Shown here: in pieces, positions 2,665-19,974 of the stretch
Layout: the number at the start of each line of letters is the position of its first letter
Numbering within the stretch: position 1 is the stretch's first letter
DNA from: an uncultured Candidatus Saccharibacteria bacterium
Lineage (GTDB): Bacteria; Patescibacteriota; Saccharimonadia; Saccharimonadales; UBA7683
Assembly (NCBI GenBank): GCA_964541305.1
Contig: CAZIPE010000001.1
Location: forward strand, 12,138-76,137
Direction of reading: 5' to 3'
DNA length: 64,000 nucleotides
Position numbers and translations under genes: made by a program
Notes under the pieces: generated by a model
Databases searched by the model: none
Seen by the model: only the letters and a program-made list of their open reading frames with translations
Told to the model about the DNA's origin: nothing

Positions 2665-2745
2665 TACGGCTATTATAATGTATAATATACTTACTAGCAA
2701 CAAGGATTACTACTTTGTTAGATATTTATCATACAACCGCGAGGA

Positions 2746-3549
2746 ATGAGTCGAAAAATGAACGCCACCAGAAACTTATTTATCTCCGAACAACGCCCAC
2801 ACGTTGGTGAGCTAGTTCATTCCACTTTTCATACAGTTGAGGCAGACTGCCCTGCCCTAGAGGACATCCTCGCGTTCAGTCCGCCGGTTCAATTCTCAAG
2901 AGCCATAGCGCTCGTTGCACAAAAAGATGAGACGGGTCAATTTGATCCTCGTCGTCTCACTATTGATGATGACGTGATGCGTTATAAAGAGTTTACCGGT
3001 TGGACTCGCGCAGATAGACAGGGATTTGAATATGGAGAATTGCTTTTGAAATACGGAAAATTTCTATGTGATCAGCTACAAGACTCCCTTACCGACGATG
3101 CATATCATGATCCAGGTTTTACATCAGCGCTCAGCATATTAGTTGAGCACACGCGTCGTTACGCACCATTAACCGACCAACCATTCGAAGATGATTACCT
3201 ACCCCTTTTCGCCGGTACAAATGATTTGAGTTCGAACATTGTCCCAAGTAAATTTGGACCACACATTGACTTTACTCATTCCAGCCCGAGCATTATTGGC
3301 TTTGCTGTCTCGGCTGGCAGTGTCGGCACTATACTGTGCCAAGGAGAGTTTTCTTTTGTTGACCCGACGAGTAGCAAAGAGGAGCTGAATAGTGCCGGTA
3401 ATGGATTAGAAAAAATGGATGCAACTCCTCTCAAGATACATTACGGCGACAGTAGGACATCACTGCATGAGGGACCAGAAATACCACATAATACGTGGCG
3501 GAATTTCGTTCGCTTCTTTATGGGGCCAGCTCATCCAAGACACCCATAA
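2746..3549 (+). CDS. Hypothetical protein
   Basis: 267-aa ORF, divergent from the oxidoreductase operon, with AGGA upstream. No recognisable motif. Confidence 0.4.
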   Translation: MSRKMNATRNLFISEQRPHVGELVHSTFHTVEADCPALEDILAFSPPVQFSRAIALVAQKDETGQFDPRRLTIDDDVMRYKEFTGWTRADRQGFEYGELLLKYGKFLCDQLQDSLTDDAYHDPGFTSALSILVEHTRRYAPLTDQPFEDDYLPLFAGTNDLSSNIVPSKFGPHIDFTHSSPSIIGFAVSAGSVGTILCQGEFSFVDPTSSKEELNSAGNGLEKMDATPLKIHYGDSRTSLHEGPEIPHNTWRNFVRFFMGPAHPRHP

Positions 3550-3603
3550 AGTCTATTATATTTTTTGTAAGTTAGATCAGACTAATGCTAGAATATCTAT
3601 ATA

Positions 3604-4125
3604 ATGAGTCTTTCACTTGTAATTCGCGATTCAGACGTAATACCTGGCTCAACTCCACAGTCCAACATTACGTATAGAGATCGTTTTGCGGCTCGAGCTG
3701 TGGTTCTCAACGATGAGGGTGAAGTATTACTCCTTCACGTATCCCTTCACAACTACCATAAACTACCTGGTGGTGGCATAGAGGCAGATGAAGATGCGCG
3801 GGATGCCTTACAACGCGAACTACTCGAGGAAATAGGCTGTACCGGTAAGATTATTGCTGAACTTGGTCAGGTTACGGAGTATCGGGATCAATTTAAATTG
3901 CATCAAATATCGTACTGTTTCTTGGTCTCAAAAATTGGAGAACAACAGACTCCTATGCTTGAACCCGATGAGAAAGCACAGGGATTCGTAGAGACTAAAG
4001 CAAAAAACCTTAAAGACGCGATTGCTCTGATGAAAAAAGACAATCCGGATAACTACGAGGGCAAGTTCATCACACGGCGAGATGTCGCTATTCTGAAAGC
4101 AGCTTATAAAAATAGACCGCAGTAG
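3604..4125 (+). CDS. NUDIX hydrolase
   Basis: Nudix box GGGIEADEDARDALQRELLEEIG fits the consensus Gx5Ex7REUxEExGU. Confidence 0.8.
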   Translation: MSLSLVIRDSDVIPGSTPQSNITYRDRFAARAVVLNDEGEVLLLHVSLHNYHKLPGGGIEADEDARDALQRELLEEIGCTGKIIAELGQVTEYRDQFKLHQISYCFLVSKIGEQQTPMLEPDEKAQGFVETKAKNLKDAIALMKKDNPDNYEGKFITRRDVAILKAAYKNRPQ

Positions 4126-4417
4126 TTTATATAGTTTAAACAGTATTATTACACAAAAAATTTGGACCAAGGGGCTTGGCTTTATTGGTGCAGTCTAATC
4201 TATTAACAGATTTATTTTATAGATTACACGATGTTCCTGACGCATATCGATTTACTTAAAATTTCAGATCGTGACGCTCGGCCGAGTCAATGAATCGAGA
4301 CTCTACTAGTCTATTTTTTGCTCTAAGAAGTTTAATTATCGGGTTACGGTAGAGAATATTCGAAAAAAGCGGTATACTACACGTTGATACAATAACTAAT
4401 AGAGAGGTAAGACAGAT

Positions 4418-4609
4418 ATGGCTACAGGATACTGCGTTAAATGCAAAGAAAAAGGCGTTGAACTATCAGCACCAGAGATTCACCAAACAGCAAAAGGTGG
4501 CTTTATGGCTAAAGGCAAGCACGAGAAATGTGGAACAACCGTATGTGCAATGATGTCTAAAGATACTGCCGACAAAGCACTAGAAGACGGCGCGAAAAAA
4601 GCGTACTAA
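4418..4609 (+). CDS. Small Cys-containing (zinc-ribbon-like) protein
   Basis: 63 aa with CxxC ... CxxxxC spacing. Strong SD GAGAGG lies 8 nt upstream of the ATG. Confidence 0.45.
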   Translation: MATGYCVKCKEKGVELSAPEIHQTAKGGFMAKGKHEKCGTTVCAMMSKDTADKALEDGAKKAY

Positions 4610-4666
4610 ATACCTAATACACAATGATCTGAATTGCCGACGATTGATTCTAAGTAGTCGATGGTA

Positions 4667-6343
4667 CTACCGTGCTTTTAGACTTTCTCGGCGTTCTATG
4701 CCACGGAGTTCACGCTGAATTAATTCTTTAATTAAATCATTAATTACTGTTCCCCATTGTCTGCTTCTCACGTTTGCACGTGTAGATTCGTCTTCATGAG
4801 TAATTGACAGCATTAATCTTACTGCATCGACATTTTTGAGCCAAAAATTGTCATTAGGTGTAACTCTGCTACTTACAATGTGACTCATAGCCTCATCGGA
4901 AATATCAGTAATGAAGACATTTTTTAAATGACCAACCGTAATACCACCTCTCTCCAAAGCCCCATGATGTGCTATGGTTTTGATAATGGATCGAGTGCAT
5001 CCAGAAATAGAGCTTAACAACTCATGTTTAAGTCGTTCTTTGCGTTGAGCGTTTGTTTCATTTCGGTCATCGCGTGCTGAAGTATTATCACGAACTGTAT
5101 CAATAATAGGAACAGTGTCATCGTATCGGTGCGGTACATCGGAAGAGGCGGCGGCTGGGGTAGTCGTACCTGTTATTACTGACGGTTCTGGTAATGAGTC
5201 CTCAGAATCGTTATATATACGCATTGGTTCGAAATTATCTACATAATCATCTGTTTCGAAAGTGTTTTGATCTGAATAATCACCAACTTGATCTTTCCTG
5301 ATTGCTCTATATATACGATGTCGTCGAACAATAGCAGTGTGACCATTAGTCTTTTGCTCTAGGATTCTGCGCCAACCGTATTGTAGTATATGCCCTTCCT
5401 GATCAAGGATTTCAGAGAGCGCTTCACCGCGAACCTTGGGCCCTAATGTACTCGTTACTCGGCTACGTAAGTGATGTTCAGACAAATCAGCAATAACCTC
5501 TTTCGAATACAAGGCGCGTGCAATTTGGTCTACAGTAACCGTTTGTCCAGAATGCTCTGTCAAACAAAGTGCCGCATAGAGTGCAGCTTTAGGTTGGTCT
5601 ATGTGTCTTTCAGTAAATTTTTTAACTTCCCCATCCGGACAATCTATAGGTACGGGCTCAACTGGAAGTTCGTCCAGTACTGCAAAGATAGAACGATTCT
5701 GGTCCATTAAAGCTAGTGGTAATTCCCAGCTAACCGCTAGTTGACCAACTTTTTCGTCTAGAGAAACAGAATATACCTTAAGTTTTTCAAGTTCTTGACT
5801 GGCTTGATCCTCTTGATCCATTAAATCTATAACAGCATCTTCTAGGTCATTAATTTCTTGATTACTTACCAGCTTAATGCCGCGGGAATCCAATAACTCG
5901 ACTACCGCTTCAACCGATCTAGGAGCAAGCCGTTTCACGGTTGCTAAAAGTTCTTCTGTTTTCTGTCGATGTTTTTGCTGGATTAGTAGTTCCTCAAGAG
6001 CTGCTTCTTGCTCTTTTACAGTAGGCGCCAGTTCATTGACTCGAGCATCTGTTATTTCCAGACCCTTATCGATAGCGAGGCTCGCTTTACCCAGGCTTTT
6101 ATACAAAAGACTCGATTCAGGTGCTATAGCCAAAATATTGGCAAAACTCTCTTCTTGCTCTTCGGCTATACCAAAGTGCACAATATCAAGAATTTCAGGC
6201 TCATCTACGAGCAGAGTATTAGCTTCGTGATATCGAGCATTTTGATCTGCTATTTGCAGTGCAAGTCCATCAGCGTCCACAAGGGTAGCAGACCCGTCTT
6301 CTAGGCCTGCAAATAGCTGGCTTATTTGTTCACTATATTCCAT
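4667..6343 (-). CDS. Hypothetical 558-aa protein (coiled-coil N-terminus, central wHTH-like segment), co-transcribed with upstream helicase
   Basis: Long ORF 64 nt downstream of the helicase on the same strand. Heptad-rich N-terminal half, and a TVDQIARALYS-type helix-turn-helix-like stretch. No known catalytic motif recognised. Confidence 0.6.
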   Translation of the reverse strand: MEYSEQISQLFAGLEDGSATLVDADGLALQIADQNARYHEANTLLVDEPEILDIVHFGIAEEQEESFANILAIAPESSLLYKSLGKASLAIDKGLEITDARVNELAPTVKEQEAALEELLIQQKHRQKTEELLATVKRLAPRSVEAVVELLDSRGIKLVSNQEINDLEDAVIDLMDQEDQASQELEKLKVYSVSLDEKVGQLAVSWELPLALMDQNRSIFAVLDELPVEPVPIDCPDGEVKKFTERHIDQPKAALYAALCLTEHSGQTVTVDQIARALYSKEVIADLSEHHLRSRVTSTLGPKVRGEALSEILDQEGHILQYGWRRILEQKTNGHTAIVRRHRIYRAIRKDQVGDYSDQNTFETDDYVDNFEPMRIYNDSEDSLPEPSVITGTTTPAAASSDVPHRYDDTVPIIDTVRDNTSARDDRNETNAQRKERLKHELLSSISGCTRSIIKTIAHHGALERGGITVGHLKNVFITDISDEAMSHIVSSRVTPNDNFWLKNVDAVRLMLSITHEDESTRANVRSRQWGTVINDLIKELIQRELRGIERRESLKAR

Positions 6344-6407
6344 ATAAATTGTATTATACCAATAAATACCATAAATAGCAATAGTATTATCTATATATCC
6401 TTTTTAC

Positions 6408-7898
6408 TTATTTTTTACGTTTTTGAAAAATGGTGCCACTTGCTCGTCGAATTCTTTCGGCATCTTCGTGTGTAAAGTACGGAATATGACTTCCTTTTTT
6501 GGTTGGAAACTGTTCCGGTTCAATTTTTAAATAAATTGCCACTGATTTGAGCGCTGCAGGAGTCATATCTAGTTCACCCGCCAGCCTACTGAGTCTCGTT
6601 GCACCTAAAGGTACCGTCTGCCCTTCAAGATAGACTCCACTCGCAATTTTTTTAAGGAGAGGCAGTATCCGCTTTGCTTGCTCGGAAAAGTGAACGTAAC
6701 TCATGTCTATTTCAATAGTTTGGAGCAACTCTTCTTCTGGGTCGACCTTAGCGCCTGAGTCTCGCCATATTCTATCAACCATAAGTAGACGTTCGGCGTT
6801 ACCGACAAAGTCAAGTACCTGAACGCGCGATTTTGCACCAGTCTTACGTAGACCACGGCCTAGTTGCTGAAGGTATATTCGTTTTGATCCTGTTTGGCGT
6901 TTAAATACAATCTGTGTTGCCTCTGGCACGTCTATACCTTCGTTAAAGGCGTCAACTGCACAAATTGTACTAATGCCACTGCCGGTCTTAAACGAGTTGA
7001 GTAGACGTTTACGCTCAGTTCTTGTGAGTTCAGAGTGGTAGGCGGCAGAATTTTGGAAGTAGCCCGAAAAATTTTCAGCGTCTTCAATTGAACTACAGAA
7101 AATTATTCGCTTCACTTCTTTAAGATTCTCAGACTTCTCATGTATTATTTTGGCTATTTCATCGTCGCGTTTTGGTACAAATACTTTGCGGTCTAATTGC
7201 TCAAAAGGATATTCCTCGCCGTAATCATCGATAAGTCTGCGCTCTTCAATAACTTCGTCAGTGATAATGTGATAGTCCACGCTTGCAAGGAGTCTATTAC
7301 GTATTGCCTCCTCAAGTGTCATGCTGTACACTTCTTGGCCAAAAATATCTCGAATATCTTTAACATCCATTCGATCAGGAGTCGCAGTTACGCCGAGCAA
7401 GTGTTCAAAATCAAAGTATCTTAGAGTGGGCTCGTAAGTGTCGGCTTTCGCGTGATGTCCTTCATCAACTGTGCCAAATGTAAACTCATCTTTCAAAAAA
7501 GCAGGATGCCATTCGCGCATCACTTGAAATGATCCGAATAAAACAGATACTTCATCATAGTTTCGGCCATCGCCGCTAAATAGTCCGTATTCAAACTCTT
7601 CTCCAACTATGGATTCAAATCGTTCGTGGGCTTGATTAAGGATGTCATTGTTATCATTCAGAAATAAACCACGAGCAGACGGGTCTCTTAGGAGTCTACG
7701 GCGGGCATCAGCGGCCATCACGGTTGTCTTGCCTAGTCCTGGCGCCATAACGATAAGCGAGGAGGTATTACCTTGTTTTTCATTTTCGGCAATCGCATCA
7801 AGGGCTTCAATTTGATAGTCACGCACCTCTACTTCTGGCACACGATGATTAATTTCTCTCATCAATTCAATACTGGAGAGTTCTTTTGGGGTACTCAT
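6408..7898 (-). CDS. SF2 helicase, ResIII/DEAD-DEAH (DExH) family
   Basis: Motif I APGLGKT, motif II DEGHH, motif III TATP, motif VI QQLGRGLR. Has a ~100-aa C-terminal extension. Confidence 0.85.
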   Translation of the reverse strand: MSTPKELSSIELMREINHRVPEVEVRDYQIEALDAIAENEKQGNTSSLIVMAPGLGKTTVMAADARRRLLRDPSARGLFLNDNNDILNQAHERFESIVGEEFEYGLFSGDGRNYDEVSVLFGSFQVMREWHPAFLKDEFTFGTVDEGHHAKADTYEPTLRYFDFEHLLGVTATPDRMDVKDIRDIFGQEVYSMTLEEAIRNRLLASVDYHIITDEVIEERRLIDDYGEEYPFEQLDRKVFVPKRDDEIAKIIHEKSENLKEVKRIIFCSSIEDAENFSGYFQNSAAYHSELTRTERKRLLNSFKTGSGISTICAVDAFNEGIDVPEATQIVFKRQTGSKRIYLQQLGRGLRKTGAKSRVQVLDFVGNAERLLMVDRIWRDSGAKVDPEEELLQTIEIDMSYVHFSEQAKRILPLLKKIASGVYLEGQTVPLGATRLSRLAGELDMTPAALKSVAIYLKIEPEQFPTKKGSHIPYFTHEDAERIRRASGTIFQKRKK

Positions 7899-8024
7899 AA
7901 TCTTCTAATTATACAACACAATACTCAAAAAAACAACATTCTGTTGCGGTTTATATCTCAGAGTAATTTGAGTAACTGCTAAGTATTTTCGTCTAAAGCT
8001 CATGTGATAAAGTATGTATTAGTC

Positions 8025-8420
8025 ATGAGCAATATAAAAATAGCGCTGATTGAAGACGATAAGGACATAGTAGATATGTATGTGACTCGTTTTCGAATTA
8101 CCGGTGGTTTTGAAGTAAAAGTTGCTAATGATGGAGCCCGTGGCTTAGAGCTTATTCACACTTTTCAACCCGACATCATTCTCCTGGACATGATGATGCC
8201 ACGTATGTCGGGCATAGAAACACTCACCCGTCTTCGAAAACTGCCCCACGGAGAAGACTATAAGGTCATCGCATTGACCAATATGAAAGATAATGATACA
8301 GTCAACAAAATTAAACTATTGCATGTCAGCGATTATCTCGTTAAAGCTGAACACTCTCCGGGCGCCATTGTTGAGAGAATCTATAGTATTGTCGGACAAA
8401 CTGCTGACGAAACAAAATAA
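8025..8420 (+). CDS. Stand-alone response-regulator receiver (CheY-like) protein
   Basis: IALIEDDKDIVDMY ... ILLDMMMPRMSGIE ... KVIALT receiver signature with no output domain. ATG at 8025; the ORF track begins at GTG 8004. Confidence 0.8.
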   Translation: MSNIKIALIEDDKDIVDMYVTRFRITGGFEVKVANDGARGLELIHTFQPDIILLDMMMPRMSGIETLTRLRKLPHGEDYKVIALTNMKDNDTVNKIKLLHVSDYLVKAEHSPGAIVERIYSIVGQTADETK

Positions 8421-8467
8421 CGAATAATACGGCAGGACGCCTAGGTCTATACTCCTTATCCTTTCTT

Positions 8468-8476
8468 TGCTACAAT
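8468..8476 (+). promoter_or_regulatory. Extended -10 element TGcTACAAT upstream of giant HK gene
   Basis: TGCTACAAT lies 42 nt upstream of the TTG start. The same 12-mer TGCTACAATAGA recurs upstream of the second giant gene at 13891. Confidence 0.35.
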
Positions 8477-8517
8477 AGACTACAGTTACGAGGAGATAAT
8501 ACAAGGGGAATAAGGGT

Positions 8518-11500
8518 TTGAAAAAACAACTTAGACTAAAACTAACTAAGTCTCTACTTGCTGTAATTGCTATAGTAAGTATTCTTCCTATTGTTCAACC
8601 GGTCTTTGCCCTACCAGAACCCACCGTATCTACTGACCCCGCAACGAACATCACCACAACAACTGCTACTCTAAACGGTACCGTCTCCGATGCCGGTGAT
8701 AGCCCAGTTACTTCACGTGGCTTCAACTATGGAACAACAGATAGTTACGGAAGTATCGCAAATGAGGTGATTCCTGAGAGTTATGAATACGTCTCGCAGT
8801 GGGGCTCAGCAGCGACAAATGATGGCAAGCTAAGCGCTCCTGATTCTGTCGTTATTGATTCTGCCGGTAACCGGTATGTATCGGATACCGATAACCACCG
8901 CATCCAAAAATTCAACAGCAGCGGTGTCTATCAGTCACAGTTCGGGGGCCCCACATTCGGATCTGGCGATGGTGAATTTATTTCTCCAAAAGGTATGGCT
9001 ATCGATTCGGGTGGCAATCTGTATGTCGCAGATTCGGGTAACCACCGCATCCAAAAATTCAACAGCAGCGGTGTCTATCAGTCACAGTTCGGGGGCAGTG
9101 GTACTGGCGATGGCCAGCTCAATAGACCCGACTCTGTCGTAATTGATTCGACTGGCAACATTTACGTTGCAGATACTAATAATCACCGCATCCAAAAATT
9201 CAACAGCAGCGGTGTCTATCAGTCTCAGTTTGGCTCTTACGGCTTTGGCGACGGCCAGTTTTATGCTCCACGAGGTATCTCTTTTGATTCTAGCAATAAT
9301 ATATATATCGTCGATTCAAACAACTCTCGCGTCCAAAAATTCAACAGTAGCGGCGTTTACCTATCCCAGTTTGGAGGCATTGGTTCGGGTGATGGCCAGT
9401 TTAACACTCCCTATGGCATAACTATAGATGCCAGTAACAATCTTTACGTTGCAGATACAAATAATCACCGCATCCAAAAATTCAACAGTAGCGGTGTCTA
9501 TCAGTCTCAGTTTGGCTCTATTGGCTCAGGTGATGGCCAGCTATTTCAACCTTCGGGCATTACGCTCGATACTGACGGTAGCTTTATGATTGCAGACACT
9601 GGAAACAACCGCATTCAGAAATTCAATAGCAGTGCCGTCTATCAGTCGAAATTCGGAATGAACTGCTCGGGTAATAGCCAGTTCAACTTCATTCAAGGCG
9701 TCGCAATCGACCCCGTCGGTGACGTATACGTCTCCGATGCCGACGACAAATGTGTCCAGAAATTCAACAGCACTGGCTTCTACCAGTCCCAGTTTGGCTC
9801 TTTTGGTACCCAAAATGGTCAACTTAACTTTCCTGGAAAAATTAATATAGACCCCAGTGGCAACATTTTTGTTGCTGATACGGTAAATAGTCGGGTCCAG
9901 AAATTCAATAGCAGCGGTGTCTACCAATCCCAATTTGGCGGTGGGGGCGCAGGTAATGGCCAGTTTACTAATCCCCGCGACCTCGCGTTTGACTCTTTTG
10001 GCAACATCTATGTTGTGGACAGTAGCAACCACCGTATTCAAAAATTCAATAGCAGCGGTGTCTACCAATCCCAGTTTGGCAGCCTAGGTTCTGGCGATGG
10101 CCAGTTTAATGGGCCAGTCGCTATCGCTGTAGATTCGTTCGATAATATCTATGTTGCAGATACAAATAATCACCGCATCCAAAAATTCAACAGCAGCGGT
10201 GTCTACCAGTCGAAATTCGGAAGTTACGGCTCTAGTAACGGCCAGTTTGCCGGTCCGAATGATCTCACATTTGACTCTCTCGGGAACATCTTTGTCCTCG
10301 ATACATATAACAACCGAGTCCAAAAATTCAACAGCAGTGGTGTCTATCTATTACAATTCGGTAGTGTCGGCTCTGGCAATGGCGAGTTTAGTCTGCCCCG
10401 AGCTATAGCTATCGATTCGAATGACACCATATACATAGGAGATACTCTTAATGAGCGCGTCCAAACATTCACTCAAGGCATGAACGAGGGAGCTTTTAGC
10501 ACTAACCTAACAAATCTGACCTGTGGAACAACCTACCATTATCAAGCCTATGCTAACAATAGCCATGGATCTACCCAAGCTATTGATGCTACCTTTTCCA
10601 CTGAAGCATGTGAACCAGGTCCCCCAACTAATCTTTCCGCTACTGCCAGCTCACCCTCGTCCATTAACATAACTTGGGACGAGCCCCAGGAGGCAGGGGA
10701 TTCTGCTATTTCCTACTATATAGTCTCCCTCAGGAAAGACGGAGATATTGACTGGGTATCTGCGCTGACGCCGGATAACAATACTACCTTTACTTGGATT
10801 GGTTTGGAGCCGGATACCCAGTACGAAATTAAAGTCAAGACTCGAAATACCAACGATTATATAAGTATATATTCAAATATAGTTACCGCGACTACCGATA
10901 TCTACGTAAATCCTACACCTGATCCACCAACTAACCTCCAGGCTACCATCGGCTCTTCAAGCACTATCAATGTGACGTGGAATGCGCCGGTAAACACTGG
11001 TGATTCACCGATTTCAAAATACTATATTTATTATCAAAAAGTGGGTGACGGTTCTTGGGGCAGCCTTGATCCAGATAATGACAACACATCTGCAACCATA
11101 TCGGGTTTACAACCGAGTACACAATACAACATTAAGGTGATTGCCAGAAATAGCAACAATAACGATAGTATCGACTCCGAAATTATTACCGCGACCACAG
11201 CTACTCCGGATTTTTATCTCATCACTGATTGTCAGCAGTTGCAGGATATTCAAAACGATCTTGTTGGAAACTATGAACTTGCGAGAGATATTGATTGTTC
11301 CGACAGCATCAATTGGAATGGTGGAAAAGGGTTTATACCAATAGGATCGCCGCTAACGGCCTCCCCGTTTTCCGGGATAATCGCAGGAAATAACTATACT
11401 ATTGAAGATCTATATATTAATCAAGATGGAGAGGAGTATGCTTTTGCAGCACTTTTTGGCGGTACTGATGGTGCTTTGATTCAAGACTTGCGTGTCGTCC

Positions 11501-13851
11501 GTCCTGTGATTTCTGCATTGAACTCATCTTTTAGTATTCCTGCGACTTTGACTGCATATGATGCCAGTACATCTTCCAAAACAACTACTTTTAACAATGT
11601 GCATATTGTTGATGCACACCTGGAGGGCGGAGGTGAGCTGATTACGGTAGCGGGTGGAATGGTGGGGCTTACTCAAAATTCAGGAACGGCAGCAGATAAC
11701 CTAAATGAGTTTCAGGGGACAATAGAACTTCATGGATCAATGGGCCAACTGGTGGTAGCTGGAGGCCTGTACGGTCAAATGGACGGCGGCATTCGGTCTG
11801 TTAATAATAGTTATGCAGTTGCTGATATTACTATCGAGAATACATTTTCAGGTTCAGGTGATTCATATAGTATAGCAGGGGGACTTCTCGGTGGGAATGG
11901 ATTAATTCAAAGGGAACCCACGCAATCAATATTTAATCACAGCTATGCTGCTGGCAGTATCTCTCACAATGGTGTTGATCCAAACGGCGGGATCGCGCTC
12001 GGGGGAACAACTGGATTAGTAACCAGGGATGGCTCTATAAGCAACACCTTTGCTCGTAACACCCTTACAAACACGCAATCTGATGCTACGGAGTTTGTTG
12101 GCGGTGTTGTCGCAGGCTTCTATGGTTCTGGGGATCGATCCTTTACCAACAACTACTTCGACGCCGACCAAGCCGGCACCACCGACTGCATCGATCCAGT
12201 CTTCGGCTCGATCTCCGGTTGCACCCCCATTCAAGGCCAACCCAACTACTTCTACAACAACACCACCAACGCCCCCCTCAACACTTGGGACTTCGACAAC
12301 ATCTGGAAGACTACCAGTACTCTCCCCGTTTTCGGAGAAAAAGTTCTGACTAGTATTACCGCCATCCCTGAATCGCGCCTCAACCCTGATCCAGTAACCC
12401 CACCAGCCGGCGGTGTCCCCGCCATCGCTGAACTGACTAAGAAACTAAAGGCCCCCACAGTCCTTACGCAACTGGCAGCTCAGGAGACCACCTCAGCTCC
12501 CAAAGAAGATACCGGCATCCTTGGTGCAATAAAACGTTTCTTCAAGAACATACCGGGGTCTGTCTTAGTCAGCTTCCCCTACATTCTGTTTGCTCTGCTT
12601 CTTCTGGCTGCTGGAGCTATGCTCGTTCAATTCCTCATTGGCTCCCGTAGACTTAAAGAGACTAAACTCCTCATTGCCAAACAAAAAGCCGTAGCCGAAG
12701 AACGAGACACCTTCTGGCACCTGGCTGCCAATTACCTCAGGGCTCCCATTACTCTCATGATCGGTGGCGTCGAGCTCCTGAGCACCGACAAAGATATTCG
12801 CTTGCCGGCTGTGGCTCAGCTGGAAGTCTTTGCTAAGAACTTACAAAAGAAAGTATTTGCCATTATGTCCCACATAGAACAAAGCCGCACGCTGCAGGAT
12901 ATCCATTGGCCTGAGCTGGAGAGCGGTGGCAGAGTCCTCACACAACTTAAGTTCTGGCTCCCGGTAGGCCTGGTTGCTTTCTTTGCCGTTTCCATGAACC
13001 TGGTCGCTAAGAACTACCGTAACCTCAGTGTGAGCACTACGAACCTGGCTATTCAGCTCCTTATCTTCATCCTAGTCTCAGTCTTGTTCTACTGGGTACT
13101 CAGTGCCCTGGGTCTCGTGAACCGAAAACGCAAACAAGCTCAGGCACTGCTGGAGCAGCAGTCAGCTACTCTCGATGATGCCCGTACCTACTTCATTGAG
13201 CAATCTGCTGCTACCCTCGACAAAGACCTATCTGACTTTGAAGCTCAACTCGACAGCATACCCAAGAAAGCTGCCTCGGTCGGTATTATCCATGAAGGCG
13301 CCCACCGTCTTAGAACCCTCATAGATAGCTTCGAGCTACTGGTCGCTGCCCAAAACAACAAACTAGACAACCTGTCTCCTGCCACGGCTCACACCCAGCT
13401 CAACACCATCTTCGACGGTGTCCTTGCCTCCCTGCAGCCCATTATTTCCCAGAAACAACTCAAGGTTGTCACTCCCAACCTCAACAACGTCACCCTCCCC
13501 GGTAACGCACTGTTACTTAACCAGGTCATTGGTAGTGTGGTCTCTAACGCTGTCGCCTTTAGCCCTTCTGGAAGTACCATACAACTTGATCTCAAACAAC
13601 ACAAAGACGGTACCCGTCTTAGTGTGACCAACCAAGGAGAGACCATTGATGAAGACCAGCTGTCTCATGTCTTTAGTCCTCTTACCAAAGCTGATGGCTA
13701 CGACGCCCTTCAACTTGACCACGGCGGCCTGGGGGTCAACCTCTACATAGACAGACTGATTATGCAGCACCTGGGAGGTGGCATAAGTGTGGCTTCAGAC
13801 GCGTCCAAAGGTACGACGCTTACTATGTTGTGGCCGAAAAATATAACATAG
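8518..13851 (+). CDS. Giant (1777 aa) membrane sensor histidine kinase with extracellular NHL-repeat propeller(s), FN3 domains and GLUG domain
   Basis: TTG start with AAGGGGAA SD. Signal peptide, then about 14 tandem NHL repeats (NHRIQKFNSSGVYQSQFG...) and 3 FN3-like modules (PPTNL..SxI.ItW). GLUG motifs (AGGLLGGNG..SYAAG). TM helices around aa 1320 and 1480-1540. H-box-like HLAANYLRAPI and HEGAHRLRTL. C-terminal HATPase_c with N, G1 and G2 boxes (NAVAFS, TNQGETID, GGLGVNLY). Confidence 0.85.
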   Translation: MKKQLRLKLTKSLLAVIAIVSILPIVQPVFALPEPTVSTDPATNITTTTATLNGTVSDAGDSPVTSRGFNYGTTDSYGSIANEVIPESYEYVSQWGSAATNDGKLSAPDSVVIDSAGNRYVSDTDNHRIQKFNSSGVYQSQFGGPTFGSGDGEFISPKGMAIDSGGNLYVADSGNHRIQKFNSSGVYQSQFGGSGTGDGQLNRPDSVVIDSTGNIYVADTNNHRIQKFNSSGVYQSQFGSYGFGDGQFYAPRGISFDSSNNIYIVDSNNSRVQKFNSSGVYLSQFGGIGSGDGQFNTPYGITIDASNNLYVADTNNHRIQKFNSSGVYQSQFGSIGSGDGQLFQPSGITLDTDGSFMIADTGNNRIQKFNSSAVYQSKFGMNCSGNSQFNFIQGVAIDPVGDVYVSDADDKCVQKFNSTGFYQSQFGSFGTQNGQLNFPGKINIDPSGNIFVADTVNSRVQKFNSSGVYQSQFGGGGAGNGQFTNPRDLAFDSFGNIYVVDSSNHRIQKFNSSGVYQSQFGSLGSGDGQFNGPVAIAVDSFDNIYVADTNNHRIQKFNSSGVYQSKFGSYGSSNGQFAGPNDLTFDSLGNIFVLDTYNNRVQKFNSSGVYLLQFGSVGSGNGEFSLPRAIAIDSNDTIYIGDTLNERVQTFTQGMNEGAFSTNLTNLTCGTTYHYQAYANNSHGSTQAIDATFSTEACEPGPPTNLSATASSPSSINITWDEPQEAGDSAISYYIVSLRKDGDIDWVSALTPDNNTTFTWIGLEPDTQYEIKVKTRNTNDYISIYSNIVTATTDIYVNPTPDPPTNLQATIGSSSTINVTWNAPVNTGDSPISKYYIYYQKVGDGSWGSLDPDNDNTSATISGLQPSTQYNIKVIARNSNNNDSIDSEIITATTATPDFYLITDCQQLQDIQNDLVGNYELARDIDCSDSINWNGGKGFIPIGSPLTASPFSGIIAGNNYTIEDLYINQDGEEYAFAALFGGTDGALIQDLRVVRPVISALNSSFSIPATLTAYDASTSSKTTTFNNVHIVDAHLEGGGELITVAGGMVGLTQNSGTAADNLNEFQGTIELHGSMGQLVVAGGLYGQMDGGIRSVNNSYAVADITIENTFSGSGDSYSIAGGLLGGNGLIQREPTQSIFNHSYAAGSISHNGVDPNGGIALGGTTGLVTRDGSISNTFARNTLTNTQSDATEFVGGVVAGFYGSGDRSFTNNYFDADQAGTTDCIDPVFGSISGCTPIQGQPNYFYNNTTNAPLNTWDFDNIWKTTSTLPVFGEKVLTSITAIPESRLNPDPVTPPAGGVPAIAELTKKLKAPTVLTQLAAQETTSAPKEDTGILGAIKRFFKNIPGSVLVSFPYILFALLLLAAGAMLVQFLIGSRRLKETKLLIAKQKAVAEERDTFWHLAANYLRAPITLMIGGVELLSTDKDIRLPAVAQLEVFAKNLQKKVFAIMSHIEQSRTLQDIHWPELESGGRVLTQLKFWLPVGLVAFFAVSMNLVAKNYRNLSVSTTNLAIQLLIFILVSVLFYWVLSALGLVNRKRKQAQALLEQQSATLDDARTYFIEQSAATLDKDLSDFEAQLDSIPKKAASVGIIHEGAHRLRTLIDSFELLVAAQNNKLDNLSPATAHTQLNTIFDGVLASLQPIISQKQLKVVTPNLNNVTLPGNALLLNQVIGSVVSNAVAFSPSGSTIQLDLKQHKDGTRLSVTNQGETIDEDQLSHVFSPLTKADGYDALQLDHGGLGVNLYIDRLIMQHLGGGISVASDASKGTTLTMLWPKNIT
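8880..10460 (+). repeat. Tandem ~120-126 bp DNA repeats encoding the NHL blades
   Basis: Near-identical segments caccgcatccaaaaattcaacagcagcggtgtctatcagtc recur about 14 times. They generate the spurious antisense ORFs in this region. Confidence 0.8.
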
Positions 13852-13890
13852 AATTACCAGTCATTTGCATAAGCATCATCTGATATTTCG

Positions 13891-13899
13891 TGCTACAAT
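13891..13899 (+). promoter_or_regulatory. Extended -10 TGcTACAAT 12 nt upstream of ATG (possible leaderless start)
   Basis: TGCTACAATAGA 12-mer shared with position 8468. No SD precedes the ATG at 13912. Confidence 0.3.
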
Positions 13900-13911
13900 A
13901 GAGCTTAAGTT

Positions 13912-16900
13912 ATGAGGGTAAAAAAAGACAGGAAGCTGGTATTTTTTAAACGTATACAAGACGTGTACGTCCGTTTGGGCTATTCATCTGTTAGTAAAGC
14001 CATAAAACGGTGGCTTCGGTTACCCGCTAAAGCTATCGCTGGAACCTTATTGACTGTGCACGGTTGGTTGCTACGGCATAGCCGAGTATATCGGGCGGTG
14101 AGTCGCTATGGCTCTCATCATCCCCGCCAGCGGATACTAGCCTCGTTTCTTACCGTACTTTTTGCTGGCTCTCTCCTCCTTCGTTTTGGGGCATATGCTT
14201 CAGACGTTAACAAGGTCTGGGACTTTTCGAATCCCACCGATTATTCTCTTGAGGACAGCGACAAACTCGAATATGAGGGTAGCTCTGTTCGCCTAAAGGC
14301 GCAAAATTACGCCACTGATTCAAATACAAAAGCTCTGTATCATCTTGATGAAGCCTCAGGAACGACGGTCGCGGATAGTTCAAGCAACTCCAATACCGCA
14401 ACCGCTACGAATCCAACTTGGGGAACGGGAAACCTCAATAATGCCCTCCAACTAAACGGCACCACAAGTCAGCTTAGTGCGGATGATTCAACCTCTCTTT
14501 CGCTTACTCAATCAAATACGCTGGAGGCCTGGACCAAATTCAATGACTCATTTACCGCAGGCAGTACTGCGGGCAGACAGTCGGTCATAGATAAAGGCCC
14601 CTATCAGCTGTATTATGATGACGAAACGGGCAAGGCTGTCTACGAGTTGCAAAACAGCTCGGCAACTAACTGGCAACAGCAAGCCGGCGGCGGCGTAAAC
14701 CGTAGCTGGGACCTTGATGGCAAAAACTCCGCCGATTCCTCAGTTGGAATCGGGAATGATCTCTACATAGGGACAGGTAGCTCTACGGCTGGTGACGCTG
14801 AAGTGTGGAAACTTTCAGCCGCTGGTGTGTGGACACAAATTGGCGGAGCAGGGCTCAATAATAGTTGGGCCGCCAACACCTTCGAGACTATTGCCTCTTT
14901 GGAAACTGATGGCACCAACCTGTATGCCGGTACCGGTCTATCGAGTGGAGATGGTGAGGTCTGGATGTGGAACGGTACCACTTGGTCACGCATAGGCGGT
15001 GATGCTATTAACTCAAGCTGGGCAGTTAACACCTATAACTCGGTTCTAAGTATGGATTACTTTGGCGGCAATCTTTACGCGGGTCTCGGTAGCGGTACGG
15101 GCGGAGGTGAGGTTTGGCGATATAACGGAAGCAGCTGGACCAAGATTGGTGGCGATGGACTCAGCAGTAGCTGGGCGGCTGCCTTTACCGTCAAGCGATT
15201 AGAAAATGATGGCACCAACCTGTACGCCGGTACCGGGAACACTGCCGGCATGGCGGACGTATGGCGCTGGAATGGTACCATTTGGGCCCAAATCGGTGGT
15301 GACGGAATCAATAGTAGCTGGGCGGCCAGTACCTACGAGGAAGTGCTTAGTTCATTCTATATGGGCTCCAACCTGTACATTGGGCTTGGCACCACAGCCG
15401 GTGACGCCGAGGTGTGGCGCTGGAGTGGAGGTGCCTGGACAAAACTTGCCAGCAGTGGTGTCGGCTTCCCTGCTGCGACCTACACCGGCGTGTATAGCCT
15501 AAGTGGTGATGGCACCAATCTCTATGCTGGGGTCGGCTCCGGAGTAAATCTCGGCGACGTCTGGAAATATAACGGTAGCACCTGGACTCAAGTTGGTAAT
15601 GATGGCCTCAATTCAAGTTGGACAGGAGGCAGATTAGTCTCCACCATGGCGTATGTCAACTCTAAATTATTTGCTCACAACACATTTAGTGCGGTCGCGA
15701 CCATACCGCTCTATTCATATAACGGTTCAGTCTGGCAACGCGAAGGAGGGCAGTATTTTGATGGCAGTTGGGGTTACACCGCTTTTAACGCCGTACAATC
15801 TATGACCACAAGCAGTGGTAAGCTGTATGCTGGCCTGACCTCGACCTATGGTGGAGCGATTGTATTTGAGTTTAATGGAGGTGTGTGGCAACAGATCGGT
15901 GGCAACCTAACAAATGGAAGTTGGGATCTCGGCACTTTTAATGCGATCGAGAGCATGACTTCATACAACGGTAATCTCGTTGTCGGTACGACTGGTACTG
16001 TTAATGGAGACGCCGAAGTGTGGTCGTGGGACGGCAGTACCTGGACTAAACTTGGTGGTGACGGCTTAAGTTCAAGCTGGAACGTCAGCTATAGTGCAAC
16101 GAAGAGCCTAGCGGTAAATGCGGGTATACTCTACGCCGGTGTGGGTTCCACCGGCAATAATGGTGGCATCTGGAAGTACGAAAGCGGCACCTGGGTTAAG
16201 ATTGGCGGCGACGGTACCAATGGAAGCTGGAACAACGTATTTCGCTATGTGACTTCGATGAACTTCTATAACGGTGAGTTGGTGGCTGGCGGTACAGGTA
16301 GTACTACATCCTCTGCTGAAGTTTGGAAGTGGAATGGATCTTCGTGGACAAAAATTGGCGGCGATGGTGTGGGCAGTAGCTGGAATGCCGCTAACTACTT
16401 GGAGGTTAATGCACTGGCAACCTATCAGGGTAAGCTGATTGCCGGGATTGGTGGATCAGCGGGCGATGGTGAGGTATGGCGATATGATGGCACGACCTGG
16501 ACATTGATTGGTGGCGATAGCGTCGACAGTAGTTGGGATGGCACTACTACTCACCGTCGGGTGGCCACATTAACTGTCTACAACGGCGATCTTTACGCGG
16601 GAACGAGCGGTTCAGCAGGCGATGGTGAGGCCTGGAGATATAACGGCTCTACGTGGTCCCAGGCTGGTGGTGACAGTATAAGTAGCAGTTGGACGAATGC
16701 AATTATTTCTGTGCGATCAATGGTGGTATATAAAGGGAAATTATACACTGGCTTAGGAGACAATATATCGTTACATCCATTAGTGTATTCACTTGGTAAT
16801 AACGGCTATTTGGAGTCAACAAATAGTTCCTACAATACCGATTGGCGACATATTGCTGCCACCTATGATGGTACAACTATGAAGCTTTACATTAATGGGC

Positions 16901-19900
16901 AGCTTGATGCTAGTACGGCCGTTTCGCTTTCTATGTCTGACACTTCCTCACCGCTGCTTATAGGTTCGGCACAAGGGCCGGTGACCGCCAGTAAGGGTAC
17001 TGGTAAATTTAAGGGTATGCTCGATGAAGTTCGCATTAGTAATTCTGCGCGGACCAACTTCACAACGACACCTTATACCAGCGAAAGAGTGTCTGCTCGG
17101 CTTGCTACGGCAGATTACACCTCCGGGATTGCCTCGTGGGATGATTATATTTCTTCCGAAACAACAAATGGCGGCACCCTCACCTATCGTCTCTCAGATG
17201 ATGACGGCACCACCTGGAAATTCTGGAATGGTTCTGCTTGGGCTGTCTCTGCTGATCTGAGCCAGGCCAATGGTGCGACTGACATTGGCGATCATATCGC
17301 CACTTTCCCAGTCTCTACTGGCGGCATAACCTGGCAAGCGGTGTTTGATGGTGATGGCAATCAGCGCGTACAGCTTAATTCGGTTTCGCTTGCAGCCACT
17401 GCAGATAACACCGCACCTGCAGCAAATGCATCGAGCATTGTAATGAAAACGAGTCCTTCCGGCCCTACGATCAATTCCGGACAATGGACAAATGCCCAGG
17501 AGCCGTACTTTTCGTGGACACCTGGGAACGATGCCCAATCTACCATTAAGGGTTACTGTCTCTATCTAGGTACATCTCAAAGTGATGACCCGGTAACTTC
17601 CAAGGGTCTGCTTGGCACAAGTCCTCTCGATACCGACGGTGAATGTCAATTCGCTGTTGCCGGAGACTCGGTAGATCTTTCCACATCAGGTTATCTCGGA
17701 AGCCCTCTCGTCAGTTCAAATTCAACTTACTATCTTAATGTTAAAGCCATAGATAATGCCGGTAATGTATTCACTGGTGCCAGTGAGAGTTTTGCGTTTA
17801 AATTCGACAATACCAATCCGACCAATCCTCTCTTTGTGTCTGCGCCCTCACAATTTGTGTCTAACAAGCAGGTTACAATTACCTGGCCAACTTCTAATGC
17901 CACCGCTGCAGACGATAATCATTCTGGTGTTGCAGGTCTGCAATACAAAATTGGCGCTGGTGGAACCTGGTATGGCGATGGGCATACAGGTGCTCAAGAT
18001 GTTACCGACCTTCTGGCAGACGACGGGAGTTACCAGACAATCGATCCAATCGACTTTAATGCATTGAGTGATGGAAATAACACCATCTACTTTAGAACTT
18101 ATGACAATGCCGGTAACTTTTCTGCTTCGACAGTGACAGGAGTGATTAAAATTAATACCACCTCACCTACTGGACCACAAAATGTGACTGCCACACCAGC
18201 TACCAATACCACAAATGCCTTTGCTTTCAGCTGGAGTCCGCCAGCTACATTTGGAGGTTCAGCAAGCAACTTGGAGTACTGCTACTCGATCAATACTCTT
18301 CCCTCTGTTAATACTTGTACGTATACCGACCCCGGCGTGACAAGTCTTGTTTCCGGAGCGTATGCAACTCAGCCTGGCGAAAACACTTTTTATGTTGTGG
18401 CTAAAGATGAAGCTGGAAATATTAATTACGCTACCACCAGCAGTGCTATATTTACTGCCAACACCTCTGCTCCTGGTATTGCTCTTAATCTGGATATCGT
18501 CGATATAAGTGTGAAATCGACTAATAATTGGCGTTTAGCACTATCATGGGACGAGCCGACCGATGCGGGAGCTGGAATAGCAAGCTATAAGGTATATCGT
18601 TCTGCTGATAATATAACGTTTACCAACGTTGCCTCGACCGCTGGAACCAGCTATGTTGACGGCGGACTCTCTCAGCAACCGTATTACTACAAGGTTCGAG
18701 CCTGCGATTCTGCGAATAATTGCGGTGCTTATACGAGTGCCGTAGACGAAACACCAACCGGAAAGTACACGACTGCTGCAAATAGTACCAGTGCGCCGGA
18801 AGTATCAAGTGTCAGTACGCGTAAAGCAACCATTAGTTGGTCTACGGATCGTCAAAGTGATAGCCGCATTCAATATGGCATAAAGAGTGGTCAGTATTTC
18901 GCTACCGAAGCTGCCATATCTGATCAAGTCACCGACCATGAAGTACTCCTTAATAATCTGAGCGCTGGCACCACCTATTATTACAAAGCTAAATGGACAG
19001 ATGAAGATGGAAATACGGGACAATCGGCAGAGCTTAGCTTTAAAACAGCACCAGCCCCAGTCGTAAAAGAGGTCACTTCAGAACCATCCTTGTCAGATGC
19101 AGATATTAACTTCACCTCCAAAGATGCCGCAAAAGTGAAGATATACTTTGGTAAGTCAGAAAGCTTTGGAGGCCTCACCACCCTAAACACGTCGTTGGCT
19201 GAATCGAAATACGGCACCACGCTTACGGGCTTGGACGACGGAAGTAAGTATTTCTTTAAACTCAATACTCTCGACAGCGATGGTAATGAATACGAAGGAA
19301 ATGTCTATTCTTTTACCACTCCCCCACGTCCTCGCATTACGAATTTACGATTCCAACCTGTAAAAGACCAGCCCAGTAGCACCCAGAGAGTAACCTGGAA
19401 TACCAACGTTCCTTCGAGTAGTGAAATTACCTACGGCGTTCGTCGACCTACGCAGTCGCTCTCGCAATCTAAGCTCACCACTGAGCATGAGATAACAATT
19501 AAGGGTCTATCTGATGACAGTGACTACGTTTTAATAGCCCGGTCGCGTGATGCCAGCGGTAATGTTGCCACCTCCGATCAGCAAAGCTTTAAAACCGCTC
19601 TCGATACCCGCCCGCCGAAAATTGCCGATATTACGGTCGATACCTCAATACGCGGTACCGGGGCTGAAGCGCGCGGTCAGGTGGTTATTAGCTGGAAGAC
19701 AGATGAACCAGCCACCAGTCAGGTTGCTTACGGTGAAGGATCATCCGGTTTTCTCTCGAGTGTCAGCAGCGAGGATGCCAAGTTAACTACCGACCATGTT
19801 GTAGTGGTATCAGATCTTTCAACCTCACGTGTCTACCATTTCGAAGCACGATCATTTGACCGGGCTCGGAATGAGGCCAAGGGTGATCAACAAGTTGCCA

Positions 19901-19974
19901 TCATCGGTCGAGCCAGTGAAAATGTGCTCAGCATCATATTCAACGCGCTGCAAAAGATGTTCGGAATAAACTAA
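13912..19974 (+). CDS. Giant (2020 aa) N-terminally anchored surface protein: LamG/ConA-like domains, ~14 x 55-aa Trp/Gly-rich propeller-like repeats, FN3 and purple-acid-phosphatase-N-like FN3 modules
   Basis: N-terminal TM anchor (LASFLTVLFAGSLLLRF). LamG-like signatures (W.HIAATYDG..MKLYINGQ...FKGMLDEVRISN). Repeats of consensus GDGEVWRYNGSxWTKIGGDGxxSSW. C-terminal modules with SW.TD...Y......H.V.L..L..GT.YYYK pattern repeated 4 times. Confidence 0.85.
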   Translation: MRVKKDRKLVFFKRIQDVYVRLGYSSVSKAIKRWLRLPAKAIAGTLLTVHGWLLRHSRVYRAVSRYGSHHPRQRILASFLTVLFAGSLLLRFGAYASDVNKVWDFSNPTDYSLEDSDKLEYEGSSVRLKAQNYATDSNTKALYHLDEASGTTVADSSSNSNTATATNPTWGTGNLNNALQLNGTTSQLSADDSTSLSLTQSNTLEAWTKFNDSFTAGSTAGRQSVIDKGPYQLYYDDETGKAVYELQNSSATNWQQQAGGGVNRSWDLDGKNSADSSVGIGNDLYIGTGSSTAGDAEVWKLSAAGVWTQIGGAGLNNSWAANTFETIASLETDGTNLYAGTGLSSGDGEVWMWNGTTWSRIGGDAINSSWAVNTYNSVLSMDYFGGNLYAGLGSGTGGGEVWRYNGSSWTKIGGDGLSSSWAAAFTVKRLENDGTNLYAGTGNTAGMADVWRWNGTIWAQIGGDGINSSWAASTYEEVLSSFYMGSNLYIGLGTTAGDAEVWRWSGGAWTKLASSGVGFPAATYTGVYSLSGDGTNLYAGVGSGVNLGDVWKYNGSTWTQVGNDGLNSSWTGGRLVSTMAYVNSKLFAHNTFSAVATIPLYSYNGSVWQREGGQYFDGSWGYTAFNAVQSMTTSSGKLYAGLTSTYGGAIVFEFNGGVWQQIGGNLTNGSWDLGTFNAIESMTSYNGNLVVGTTGTVNGDAEVWSWDGSTWTKLGGDGLSSSWNVSYSATKSLAVNAGILYAGVGSTGNNGGIWKYESGTWVKIGGDGTNGSWNNVFRYVTSMNFYNGELVAGGTGSTTSSAEVWKWNGSSWTKIGGDGVGSSWNAANYLEVNALATYQGKLIAGIGGSAGDGEVWRYDGTTWTLIGGDSVDSSWDGTTTHRRVATLTVYNGDLYAGTSGSAGDGEAWRYNGSTWSQAGGDSISSSWTNAIISVRSMVVYKGKLYTGLGDNISLHPLVYSLGNNGYLESTNSSYNTDWRHIAATYDGTTMKLYINGQLDASTAVSLSMSDTSSPLLIGSAQGPVTASKGTGKFKGMLDEVRISNSARTNFTTTPYTSERVSARLATADYTSGIASWDDYISSETTNGGTLTYRLSDDDGTTWKFWNGSAWAVSADLSQANGATDIGDHIATFPVSTGGITWQAVFDGDGNQRVQLNSVSLAATADNTAPAANASSIVMKTSPSGPTINSGQWTNAQEPYFSWTPGNDAQSTIKGYCLYLGTSQSDDPVTSKGLLGTSPLDTDGECQFAVAGDSVDLSTSGYLGSPLVSSNSTYYLNVKAIDNAGNVFTGASESFAFKFDNTNPTNPLFVSAPSQFVSNKQVTITWPTSNATAADDNHSGVAGLQYKIGAGGTWYGDGHTGAQDVTDLLADDGSYQTIDPIDFNALSDGNNTIYFRTYDNAGNFSASTVTGVIKINTTSPTGPQNVTATPATNTTNAFAFSWSPPATFGGSASNLEYCYSINTLPSVNTCTYTDPGVTSLVSGAYATQPGENTFYVVAKDEAGNINYATTSSAIFTANTSAPGIALNLDIVDISVKSTNNWRLALSWDEPTDAGAGIASYKVYRSADNITFTNVASTAGTSYVDGGLSQQPYYYKVRACDSANNCGAYTSAVDETPTGKYTTAANSTSAPEVSSVSTRKATISWSTDRQSDSRIQYGIKSGQYFATEAAISDQVTDHEVLLNNLSAGTTYYYKAKWTDEDGNTGQSAELSFKTAPAPVVKEVTSEPSLSDADINFTSKDAAKVKIYFGKSESFGGLTTLNTSLAESKYGTTLTGLDDGSKYFFKLNTLDSDGNEYEGNVYSFTTPPRPRITNLRFQPVKDQPSSTQRVTWNTNVPSSSEITYGVRRPTQSLSQSKLTTEHEITIKGLSDDSDYVLIARSRDASGNVATSDQQSFKTALDTRPPKIADITVDTSIRGTGAEARGQVVISWKTDEPATSQVAYGEGSSGFLSSVSSEDAKLTTDHVVVVSDLSTSRVYHFEARSFDRARNEAKGDQQVAIIGRASENVLSIIFNALQKMFGIN

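Follow-up and report, generated by a model that had tools for sequence, protein, structure and literature searches.

How can a histidine kinase function if its polypeptide crosses the membrane between the hairpin that should carry the phosphoacceptor and the domain that should phosphorylate it? In the usual view the acceptor histidine sits on a hairpin that directly carries the catalytic domain, and the kinase works as a symmetric dimer. The question is raised by a 64,000-nucleotide (nt) stretch of DNA from an uncultured Candidatus Saccharibacteria bacterium (GenBank assembly GCA_964541305.1, contig CAZIPE010000001.1, positions 12,138 to 76,137 of the forward strand; hereafter the window), which encodes a giant sensor kinase with extracellular NHL repeats. 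An earlier reading of this DNA, made from its sequence only (the sequence-only reading), had described a single NHL kinase open reading frame (ORF) of 1777 amino acids (aa), which we confirm, and had proposed that either one of its two H-boxes is vestigial or its histidine kinase core is non-canonical. Our results support the latter alternative. We regard the protein as a two-component kinase whose core has a conserved topology that departs from the canonical one, belonging to a large and apparently undescribed family of Patescibacteria.

We consider it probable that this protein is a working membrane histidine kinase with a split and duplicated core. Two dimerisation and histidine phosphotransfer (DHp) hairpins are separated by two transmembrane (TM) helices; the second hairpin, DHp-B, lacks the histidine and would anchor the catalytic and ATP-binding (CA) domain, which in turn would phosphorylate the first hairpin, DHp-A. 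The core runs in the order TM1, DHp-A, TM2, a 12-aa loop, TM3, DHp-B and CA, and its features are as follows (hydropathy is the Kyte-Doolittle (KD) value in a 19-residue window).

8518..13851, + strand: whole kinase ORF, 1777 aa, TTG start, single and uninterrupted
12583..12639, + strand: TM1, aa 1356-1374, predicted to run from outside to inside and into helix alpha1 of DHp-A (KD 2.66)
12640..12882, + strand: DHp-A, aa 1375-1455, HisKA-like hairpin predicted to be cytoplasmic (alpha1 to aa 1422; alpha2 aa 1429-1455)
12703..12768, + strand: DHp-A H-box, RDTFWHLAANYLRAPITLMIGG, near-invariant in 38 subfamily representatives
12952..13008, + strand: TM2, aa 1479-1497, predicted inside to outside, with conserved Pro1482 (KD 1.9)
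13045..13119, + strand: TM3, aa 1510-1534, predicted outside to inside, with conserved Gln1513, running into alpha1 of DHp-B (KD 2.62)
13120..13353, + strand: DHp-B, aa 1535-1612, homologous to DHp (alpha2 aa 1586-1612)
13291..13332, + strand: segment HEGAHRLRTLIDSF, aa 1592-1605, start of DHp-B helix alpha2 (X-region)
13504..13839, + strand: CA domain (HATPase_c), aa 1663-1774 (Pfam PF02518, E 6e-15)

This layout is not peculiar to the window. An exhaustive HMMER profile search of 1.84 billion cluster representatives returned 1211 at E<=1e-30, and every one of the best 150 (249 bits or more) spans the module from TM1 to CA. Since E-values of about 1e-31 to 1e-36 are within the range of ordinary kinases when a similar profile is used, the family has at most 1211 representatives, with about 140 as a firm lower bound. 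Full-length relatives of the module (aa 1340-1777) are 38-79% identical to it and are annotated with PF02518 only; word-indexed homologue searches with two of our alignments (A4 and A6) recovered few members of the family. The separation of the H-box from the catalytic domain is visible in simple spacing: 272 residues lie between the H-box and the N-box Asn in the window protein (family median 267), compared to a median of 117 in 55 ordinary kinases and to the 110-140 or so expected of the canonical layout. Membrane helices between the H-box element and the CA domain, which the sequence-only reading had remarked on as atypical, are real and a conserved trait of the family.

The homology of DHp-A to HisKA came out only under profile-profile comparison. 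With a 142-sequence profile, DHp-A matched a canonical DHp(+CA) profile built from 58 ordinary kinases out of our first homologue search at a probability of 98.6% (hhalign, E 5e-16); the same comparison with a 7-sequence profile gave 76-89%, and a sequence search of the PDB with the latter profile found no match at E<=10. In the hhalign register FWHLAANYLRAPITL falls on FLATLSHELRTPLTAI, which puts Asn1405 (nt 12730-12732) at the position of the canonical His, and WalK chains in the PDB show the same register weakly. The canonical site therefore reads Asn1405-Tyr1406 and not His followed by Glu or Asp, and the invariant histidine of the subfamily that shares this Asn, His1401 (nt 12718-12720), lies at −4 from the canonical position. 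Asp1397, His1401 and Asn1405 are spaced by four and so occupy one helical face, and the step from His1401 to Asn1405 matches the HisKA spacing from His to Thr/Asn (+4). Of the two motifs that the sequence-only reading had quoted as H-box-like, both of which exist, the first (WHLAANYLRAPITLMIGGVELL, aa 1400-1421) belongs to this site. The Pfam models of other DHp families (HisKA_2/HWE, HisKA_3, His_kinase/LytS and HPt) gave nothing at E<=1 with either the whole protein or aa 1281-1777, and four of five SHYLRTP relatives tested reach 16-23 bits with Pfam HisKA, under its cut-off of 26.9.

An alignment of 142 C-terminal modules divides the family into two classes, with His in 103 and Asn in 38 at the H-box column of DHp-A. 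The first class has F-x-x-L-x-S-H-Y-L-R-T-P (F..L.SHYLRTP) and the second, which includes the window protein, F-W-H-L-A-A-N-Y-L-R-A-P (FWHLAANYLRAP). The co-variation between them is perfect: Trp, His, Asn and Ala in one class stand against x, x, His and Thr in the other, and Trp at −5, His at −4 and Ala at +4 relative to the canonical column occur in the same 38 sequences. The only conserved His outside the CA domain is at column 1401 in the Asn class and at column 1405 in the other (100% in each). Within the 38, R1396-D1397-x-F-W-H-L-A-A-N-Y-L-R-A-P-[VI]-T-L-x-x-G-G is essentially invariant, and the stretch from R1396 to G1417 is the best conserved of the module. A tally of Glu/Asp at +1 of the His in the canonical set was biased by the regular expression that located the His, and we did not use it as evidence.

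Seventeen loci in species-representative genomes carry members of the family, all of the FWHLAANYLR[AS]P type; 16 of them come from metagenome-assembled genomes (MAGs) named Candidatus Saccharibacteria or Saccharimonadia and one is titled 'uncultured bacterium'. Where SHYLRTP-type members have a named source, it is a 'Patescibacteria group' or 'Saccharimonadales' MAG, and they are called simply 'ATP-binding protein'. In one contig (L002) the Asn-type protein P0007 lies beside a paralogue with an orthodox FVDLASHYLRTP at the H-box position of DHp-A: P0007, of 461 aa, has no sensor (8001-9386 +) and is arranged head-to-head with this canonical-His member of 1698 aa (2709-7805 −), a pair that could function together or as a hetero-oligomer. 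In another (L001) the gene of P0005 (8001-10061) overlaps the end of an upstream 841-aa ORF with fn3 and GG repeats (5521-8046), and the two look like halves of a single giant kinase gene that a frameshift or an error of assembly has broken. Short SHYLRTP members of about 600 aa (e.g. P0110 and P0106) have a small Cys-containing ectodomain in place of the NHL/fn3 giants, with the consensus (from alignment A6) YG.G.YG.C.Y...C ... NL.DGQ.IP..GY....TPLNG.G and a weak match to Big_7.

The HATPase_c domain that the sequence-only reading called clear is indeed so. The window kinase keeps the N-box Asn1677 and an intact G2 box (GGLGVNL). Its G1 box, however, is degenerate, with NQGETI (aa 1705-1710, nt 13630-13647) against a family consensus of DxGxGI, and its F box has FSPL against FxPF. 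The form VTNQG is kept in a clade of nine (the window protein, P0001, P0002, P0068, P0070, P0073, P0080, P0223 and P0224), several of whose members also have NHL repeats, and the N and G2 boxes are intact across it. In the Asn subfamily as a whole the N-box Asn is present in 37 of 38 sequences, the G1 Asp in 33 and the second G1 Gly in 34. These conserved motifs argue for retained catalysis in the subfamily, and the window protein itself may still bind ATP.

Several points weigh against a working kinase of this design. In the window protein the G1 Asp has become Asn (a change shared with eight close relatives), the second G1 Gly has become Thr and the second Phe of the F box Leu; in the GHKL ATPases Hsp90 and GyrB, nucleotides are no longer bound once the corresponding Asp is changed to Asn. 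His1401 is followed by Leu where Glu or Asp is usual, and Tyr stands at +1 of the canonical position throughout the family (142/142), so the usual acid-base chemistry is not obviously in place. Pfam HisKA does not match the window kinase at E<=1, although both hairpins, and not only one segment as the sequence-only reading had considered, align to HisKA-type DHp with hhalign. Two loci with subfamily-2 kinases (L002 and L022) have no adjoining receiver. Finally, we infer from sequence both which residue is phosphorylated and that the CA domain reaches DHp-A, and the packing of DHp-A against DHp-B would follow from spacing geometry and the high confidence of a monomer model (see below).

A rival reading is that the protein is a pseudokinase or acts only as a phosphatase. 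It would then not autophosphorylate and would be a scaffold, a phosphatase of the receiver or a regulator of another kinase, with His1401 in a structural role. We think this unlikely for the protein, and for the VTNQG clade it is a serious rival. It would account for the Asn at the canonical His position in 38 of 38 subfamily members, for the NQGETI box and the conservation of VTNQG, and for the lack of an acidic residue beside His1401; the sensor-less Asn-type protein next to a His-type giant kinase in L002 fits regulatory pairing, and the non-canonical DivL and RetS are among the structural matches. However, the invariant His1401, Asp1397 and Trp1400 appeared as the canonical His was lost, which resembles relocation of a site and not decay. 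The N, G1 and G2 boxes remain intact in most of the Asn subfamily, the G1 Asn is itself conserved throughout the clade while the other CA motifs are intact, and the receiver partner has been kept beside the gene.

In DHp-B the stretch that corresponds to the H-box, ARTYFIEQSAATL (aa 1555-1567), has Ala1565 (nt 13210-13212) where the His would stand, and this column is variable in both subfamilies. Aligned together with the CA domain (aa 1537-1774), DHp-B matches canonical DHp plus CA over 232 columns at a probability of 100% (hhalign, E 2e-43), with ARTYFIEQSAATL on the H-box and HEGAHRLRTLIDSF on helix alpha2. DHp-B alone matches the canonical DHp profile at 91.8% (E 7e-7), and against the PDB its profile finds only marginal WalK matches (E about 1) and coiled-coil noise. 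The two hairpins are also related to each other: TM1 plus DHp-A aligns with TM3 plus DHp-B at a probability of 96.1% (E 3e-9) when 142-sequence profiles are used, and shallow profiles of DHp-A and DHp-B show no relation (1%).

The second motif of the sequence-only reading had been taken as a further H-box, and one could suppose that its histidines, H1592 or H1596, are the acceptor beside the CA domain and that the first segment is vestigial or a signal-transmitting coiled coil. Both His residues do lie in the DHp directly before the CA domain, and the NCBIfam VanS, PhoR, PnpS, CusS, CreC and CpxA profiles are contiguous from aa 1583-1596 to the C-terminus. These profiles, however, enter 30-36 positions past their own phospho-His, i.e. 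in DHp helix alpha2, and it is to helix alpha2 of DHp-B that HEGAHRLRT aligns, not to an H-box. Position 1592 is His in 12 of the 38 members of the Asn subfamily and position 1596 in 5, and His is essentially absent at both in the other 103. The supposedly vestigial first segment is moreover the best conserved of the module. An acceptor at either residue is largely refuted by this conservation and is in our view very improbable; the degenerate second H-box is in fact ARTYFIEQSAATL with its Ala1565.

Hydropathy, positive-inside charge counts and the extracellular NHL/fn3 region behind a signal peptide place both hairpins, as far as sequence can predict, in the cytoplasm. The first of the C-terminal TM helices is not at about aa 1320, as the sequence-only reading had it, and of the two or three further helices that it put at about aa 1480-1545 there are two (aa 1479-1497 and 1510-1534) and no third. 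Among 140 family members the median maximum KD of TM1, TM2 and TM3 is 2.2-2.3, and values exceed 1.6 in 94-97% of sequences; the loop from TM2 to TM3 is 12 residues, and the mean number of Lys plus Arg is 3.2 after TM1, 2.7 before TM2 and 3.4 after TM3, with 0.9 in the loop. An artefact (misassembly, a fusion of two neighbouring kinase genes, or buried soluble helices mistaken for TM stretches) might be suspected because G+C content, about 0.44 before, climbs to 0.50-0.52 at 12-16 kb of the window and the membrane spans are assigned from hydropathy. There is only the slightest chance of this, since the same unbroken order recurs in 140 or more cluster representatives, which come from many samples, and at 17 independent loci in MAGs, with the TM2 and TM3 hydropathy, fixed loop and charge pattern just described.

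Pro1482 and Gln1513 in the TM hairpin (aa 1479-1534; 12952-13119) are nearly invariant across both subfamilies, and Asn1494 and Tyr1526 are likewise conserved in both. These polar or helix-breaking residues could serve as a hinge within the membrane or as a site for a ligand.

Structure prediction agrees with this layout. We computed AlphaFold2 (AF2) models with 10 sequences (predicted local distance difference test score (pLDDT) 76, predicted template-modelling score (pTM) 0.65) and, as a monomer, with 79 sequences (pLDDT 92.3, pTM 0.82). Both predict an unbroken helix at aa 1347-1422 (TM1 plus alpha1 of DHp-A) followed by alpha2 at aa 1429-1455, a TM2 helix at aa 1477-1500, a second unbroken helix at aa 1507-1578 (TM3 plus alpha1 of DHp-B) followed by alpha2 at aa 1586-1612, and an alpha/beta CA domain whose ATP lid is of low confidence. 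The stretches between the two H-box elements, for which the sequence-only reading had proposed such a prediction, are predicted to be helical at both TM2 and TM3. Foldseek matched the DHp+CA chains of ZraS, CusS, HK853, WalK, CpxA, DivL and RetS with probability 1.00; alignments to BceS (chain 8g3a_D) extended over 351-355 columns, with a poor superposition (root-mean-square deviation about 25 Å, TM-score 0.5).

Asn1405 is 31 residues past the end of TM1 and Ala1565 is 31 past the end of TM3 (His1401 is 27 past TM1). Because of this equal spacing below the TM helices, DHp-A can fill the place that the DHp of the partner subunit takes in an ordinary dimer. This geometry and the high confidence of the monomer model suggest that the two hairpins may pack against each other; in a mean-field direct coupling analysis of contacts between them, with 103 sequences, gap columns dominate the signal.

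In the mechanism that we propose for a working kinase with a split core, the extracellular NHL/fn3 sensor would signal through TM1 straight into helix alpha1 of DHp-A, a HisKA-derived hairpin with the putative phosphoacceptor. The chain would then pass through the membrane in an excursion of TM2, loop and TM3, and re-enter the cytoplasm as the homologous DHp-B, whose histidine would have been lost and which would form the stalk of the ATP-binding CA domain. The CA domain would phosphorylate the DHp-A histidine, and the phosphoryl group would be handed to the adjoining stand-alone receiver. In most of the family the acceptor would be the canonical His (SHYLRTP), and in the Saccharibacteria branch it would be His1401, one helical turn nearer the membrane and placed between Asp1397 and Asn1405 on one face of the helix.

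A more specific form of this mechanism, which we offer tentatively and hold to be possible but somewhat doubtful, is a single-chain 'pseudo-dimeric' core, in which the two hairpins would form an intramolecular four-helix bundle under a bundle of three TM helices, with the acceptor shifted by one turn in Saccharibacteria. If this is true, signalling would consist of TM1 and the acceptor helix moving against a catalytic unit anchored by TM3, with no rearrangement of a symmetric dimer, and the shift in Saccharibacteria would be a natural experiment on how mobile the acceptor is within DHp.

The sensor part of the kinase and the neighbouring genes are as follows.

8518..8610, + strand: signal peptide or anchor, aa 1-31, ending in ...QPVFA (KD peak 2.47 at aa 13-31)
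8764..11202, + strand: extracellular sensor with 12 NHL repeats (aa ~83-650) and then Ig/fn3 (aa ~700-895)
11203..12522, + strand: extracellular domain with GG-rich repeats, aa ~896-1335, with no Pfam match
8004..8420, + strand: stand-alone CheY-like response regulator (receiver), 138 aa (NCBIfam receiver profiles, E 1e-15)
13912-19974, + strand: 2020-aa protein with Laminin_G_3 and several fn3-like domains
19974-20741, + strand: ABC ATPase (ABC_tran)
20738-22021, + strand: MacB_PCD/FtsX permease

A basic n-region and the VFA motif are visible at the N-terminus of the kinase, where the signal peptide may be cleaved. Pfam finds NHL in 12 stretches (E 5e-95) and fn3 in 2 (E 1e-31). The GG-rich part contains a motif, YF.NN..N.PL..W.F..IW, that is also conserved in the relatives P0003-P0006, and a PDB sequence search with aa 890-1339 of the ectodomain found no match. 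A 175-aa ORF antisense to the NHL region (9541-10068 −) is most likely a by-product of repetitive coding sequence and no gene. G+C content rises to 0.49-0.52 over positions 12001-18000 of the window, against about 0.43 elsewhere, with a GC skew of −0.17 at 12-14 kb; the high-G+C stretch comprises the kinase core and the start of the giant gene downstream.

The receiver lies just upstream of the kinase and has all active-site residues (D18/D19, D62, T92 and K114). A homologue of it adjoins the kinase in 10 of the 17 related Saccharibacteria loci, in seven of them upstream by 20-120 nt on the strand of the kinase and in three convergently downstream, and the adjoining receiver is likely to be the phosphotransfer partner of the kinase. 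The 2020-aa protein encoded downstream has an N-terminal TM-like segment and many W..IGG.G..SSW repeats. It is followed, 6 kb downstream of the kinase, by the ABC ATPase and FtsX/MacB permease and then by an AI-2E family transporter (19974-23168 (+) for all three genes). None of these four was found in the related loci, whose flanks were short; the ABC pair is reminiscent of the BceAB-type transporters that partner kinases with two TM helices, but it is not conserved beside the relatives. An ordinary multi-TM histidine kinase of 548 aa with an orthodox H-box, EEERDEFISVVSHELRTPV, is encoded at 50407-52053 (−), and this genome therefore contains kinases of both types.

If the proposed mechanism holds, a large natural family that splits acceptor and catalytic domain, both by a membrane excursion and by a His-less duplicate of the hairpin, would show a new way of regulating a kinase and would offer a ready-made system for studying the geometry of cis and trans phosphorylation together with transmembrane signalling, and SHYLRTP and WH...NYLRAP would be paired natural variants for the positional tolerance of the acceptor. 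The full-text literature that we searched has no description of a split-core architecture or a displaced DHp acceptor, although such absence is no proof. Domain-based censuses report very few kinases in bacteria of the candidate phyla radiation (e.g. PMC10805038). With Pfam HisKA, proteins of the present family stay below the threshold or only just attain it, and in NCBI records they go under 'ATP-binding protein' or 'fibronectin type III domain-containing protein'; because of such generic names and missed thresholds these censuses may undercount. Saccharibacteria are epibionts, and giant sensors that are exposed on their surface and coupled to a minimal receiver would be candidates for sensing of the host or of surfaces.

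Canonical HisKA kinases (EnvZ, HK853, WalK, CpxA) have the layout TM, DHp with H-E/D-x-x-T/N, and CA. The window kinase resembles them in its two hairpins, each a homologue of the HisKA DHp, in its Bergerat-fold CA domain with N, F and G2 boxes, and in its large extracellular sensor and adjoining receiver. It differs in that the hairpin beside the CA domain lacks the His, that two TM helices and a second DHp lie between the H-box hairpin and the CA domain, and that Tyr replaces Glu/Asp at +1, with His at −4 and Asn at the canonical position in the Saccharibacteria branch. The C-terminal half of the core (TM2, 12-residue loop, TM3, DHp-B and CA) is like the intramembrane-sensing BceS/LiaS type, which has two TM helices, a loop of under about 25 residues, DHp-CA and no large ectodomain; in contrast to that type, DHp-B lacks the His and the protein has a 1300-residue ectodomain and the additional TM1 and DHp-A.

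DivL, with Tyr at the site, and RetS are among the best structural matches and share with the window kinase a canonical acceptor position that is not His (here Asn1405 and Ala1565). Unlike them, the window kinase has an invariant His one turn away, which is accompanied by further invariant changes, and 103 related representatives have the orthodox His at the canonical column; nothing equivalent to the duplicated hairpin or the TM insertion is known from DivL, RetS or other pseudokinases. CheA is a class II kinase with its His on P1, a His-less P3 dimerisation hairpin and a catalytic P4 domain. By analogy, the hairpin of the catalytic domain in the window kinase would lack the acceptor and the His would be on another helical domain of the same chain, which would have to be brought to the catalytic domain; this His domain, however, is a HisKA-type hairpin and not an HPt bundle, it is tethered through the membrane on both sides and not by flexible linkers, there is no P2 or P5, and sequence matches between CheA and the window kinase are marginal (E 0.18-0.38). 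Trans-complementing heterodimers made in the laboratory from EnvZ or NtrB combine a His-less subunit with a CA-defective one. They are similar to the arrangement proposed here in that one hairpin would give the His and the other the catalytic domain, but in the window kinase both belong to one natural polypeptide and are joined by a membrane hairpin.

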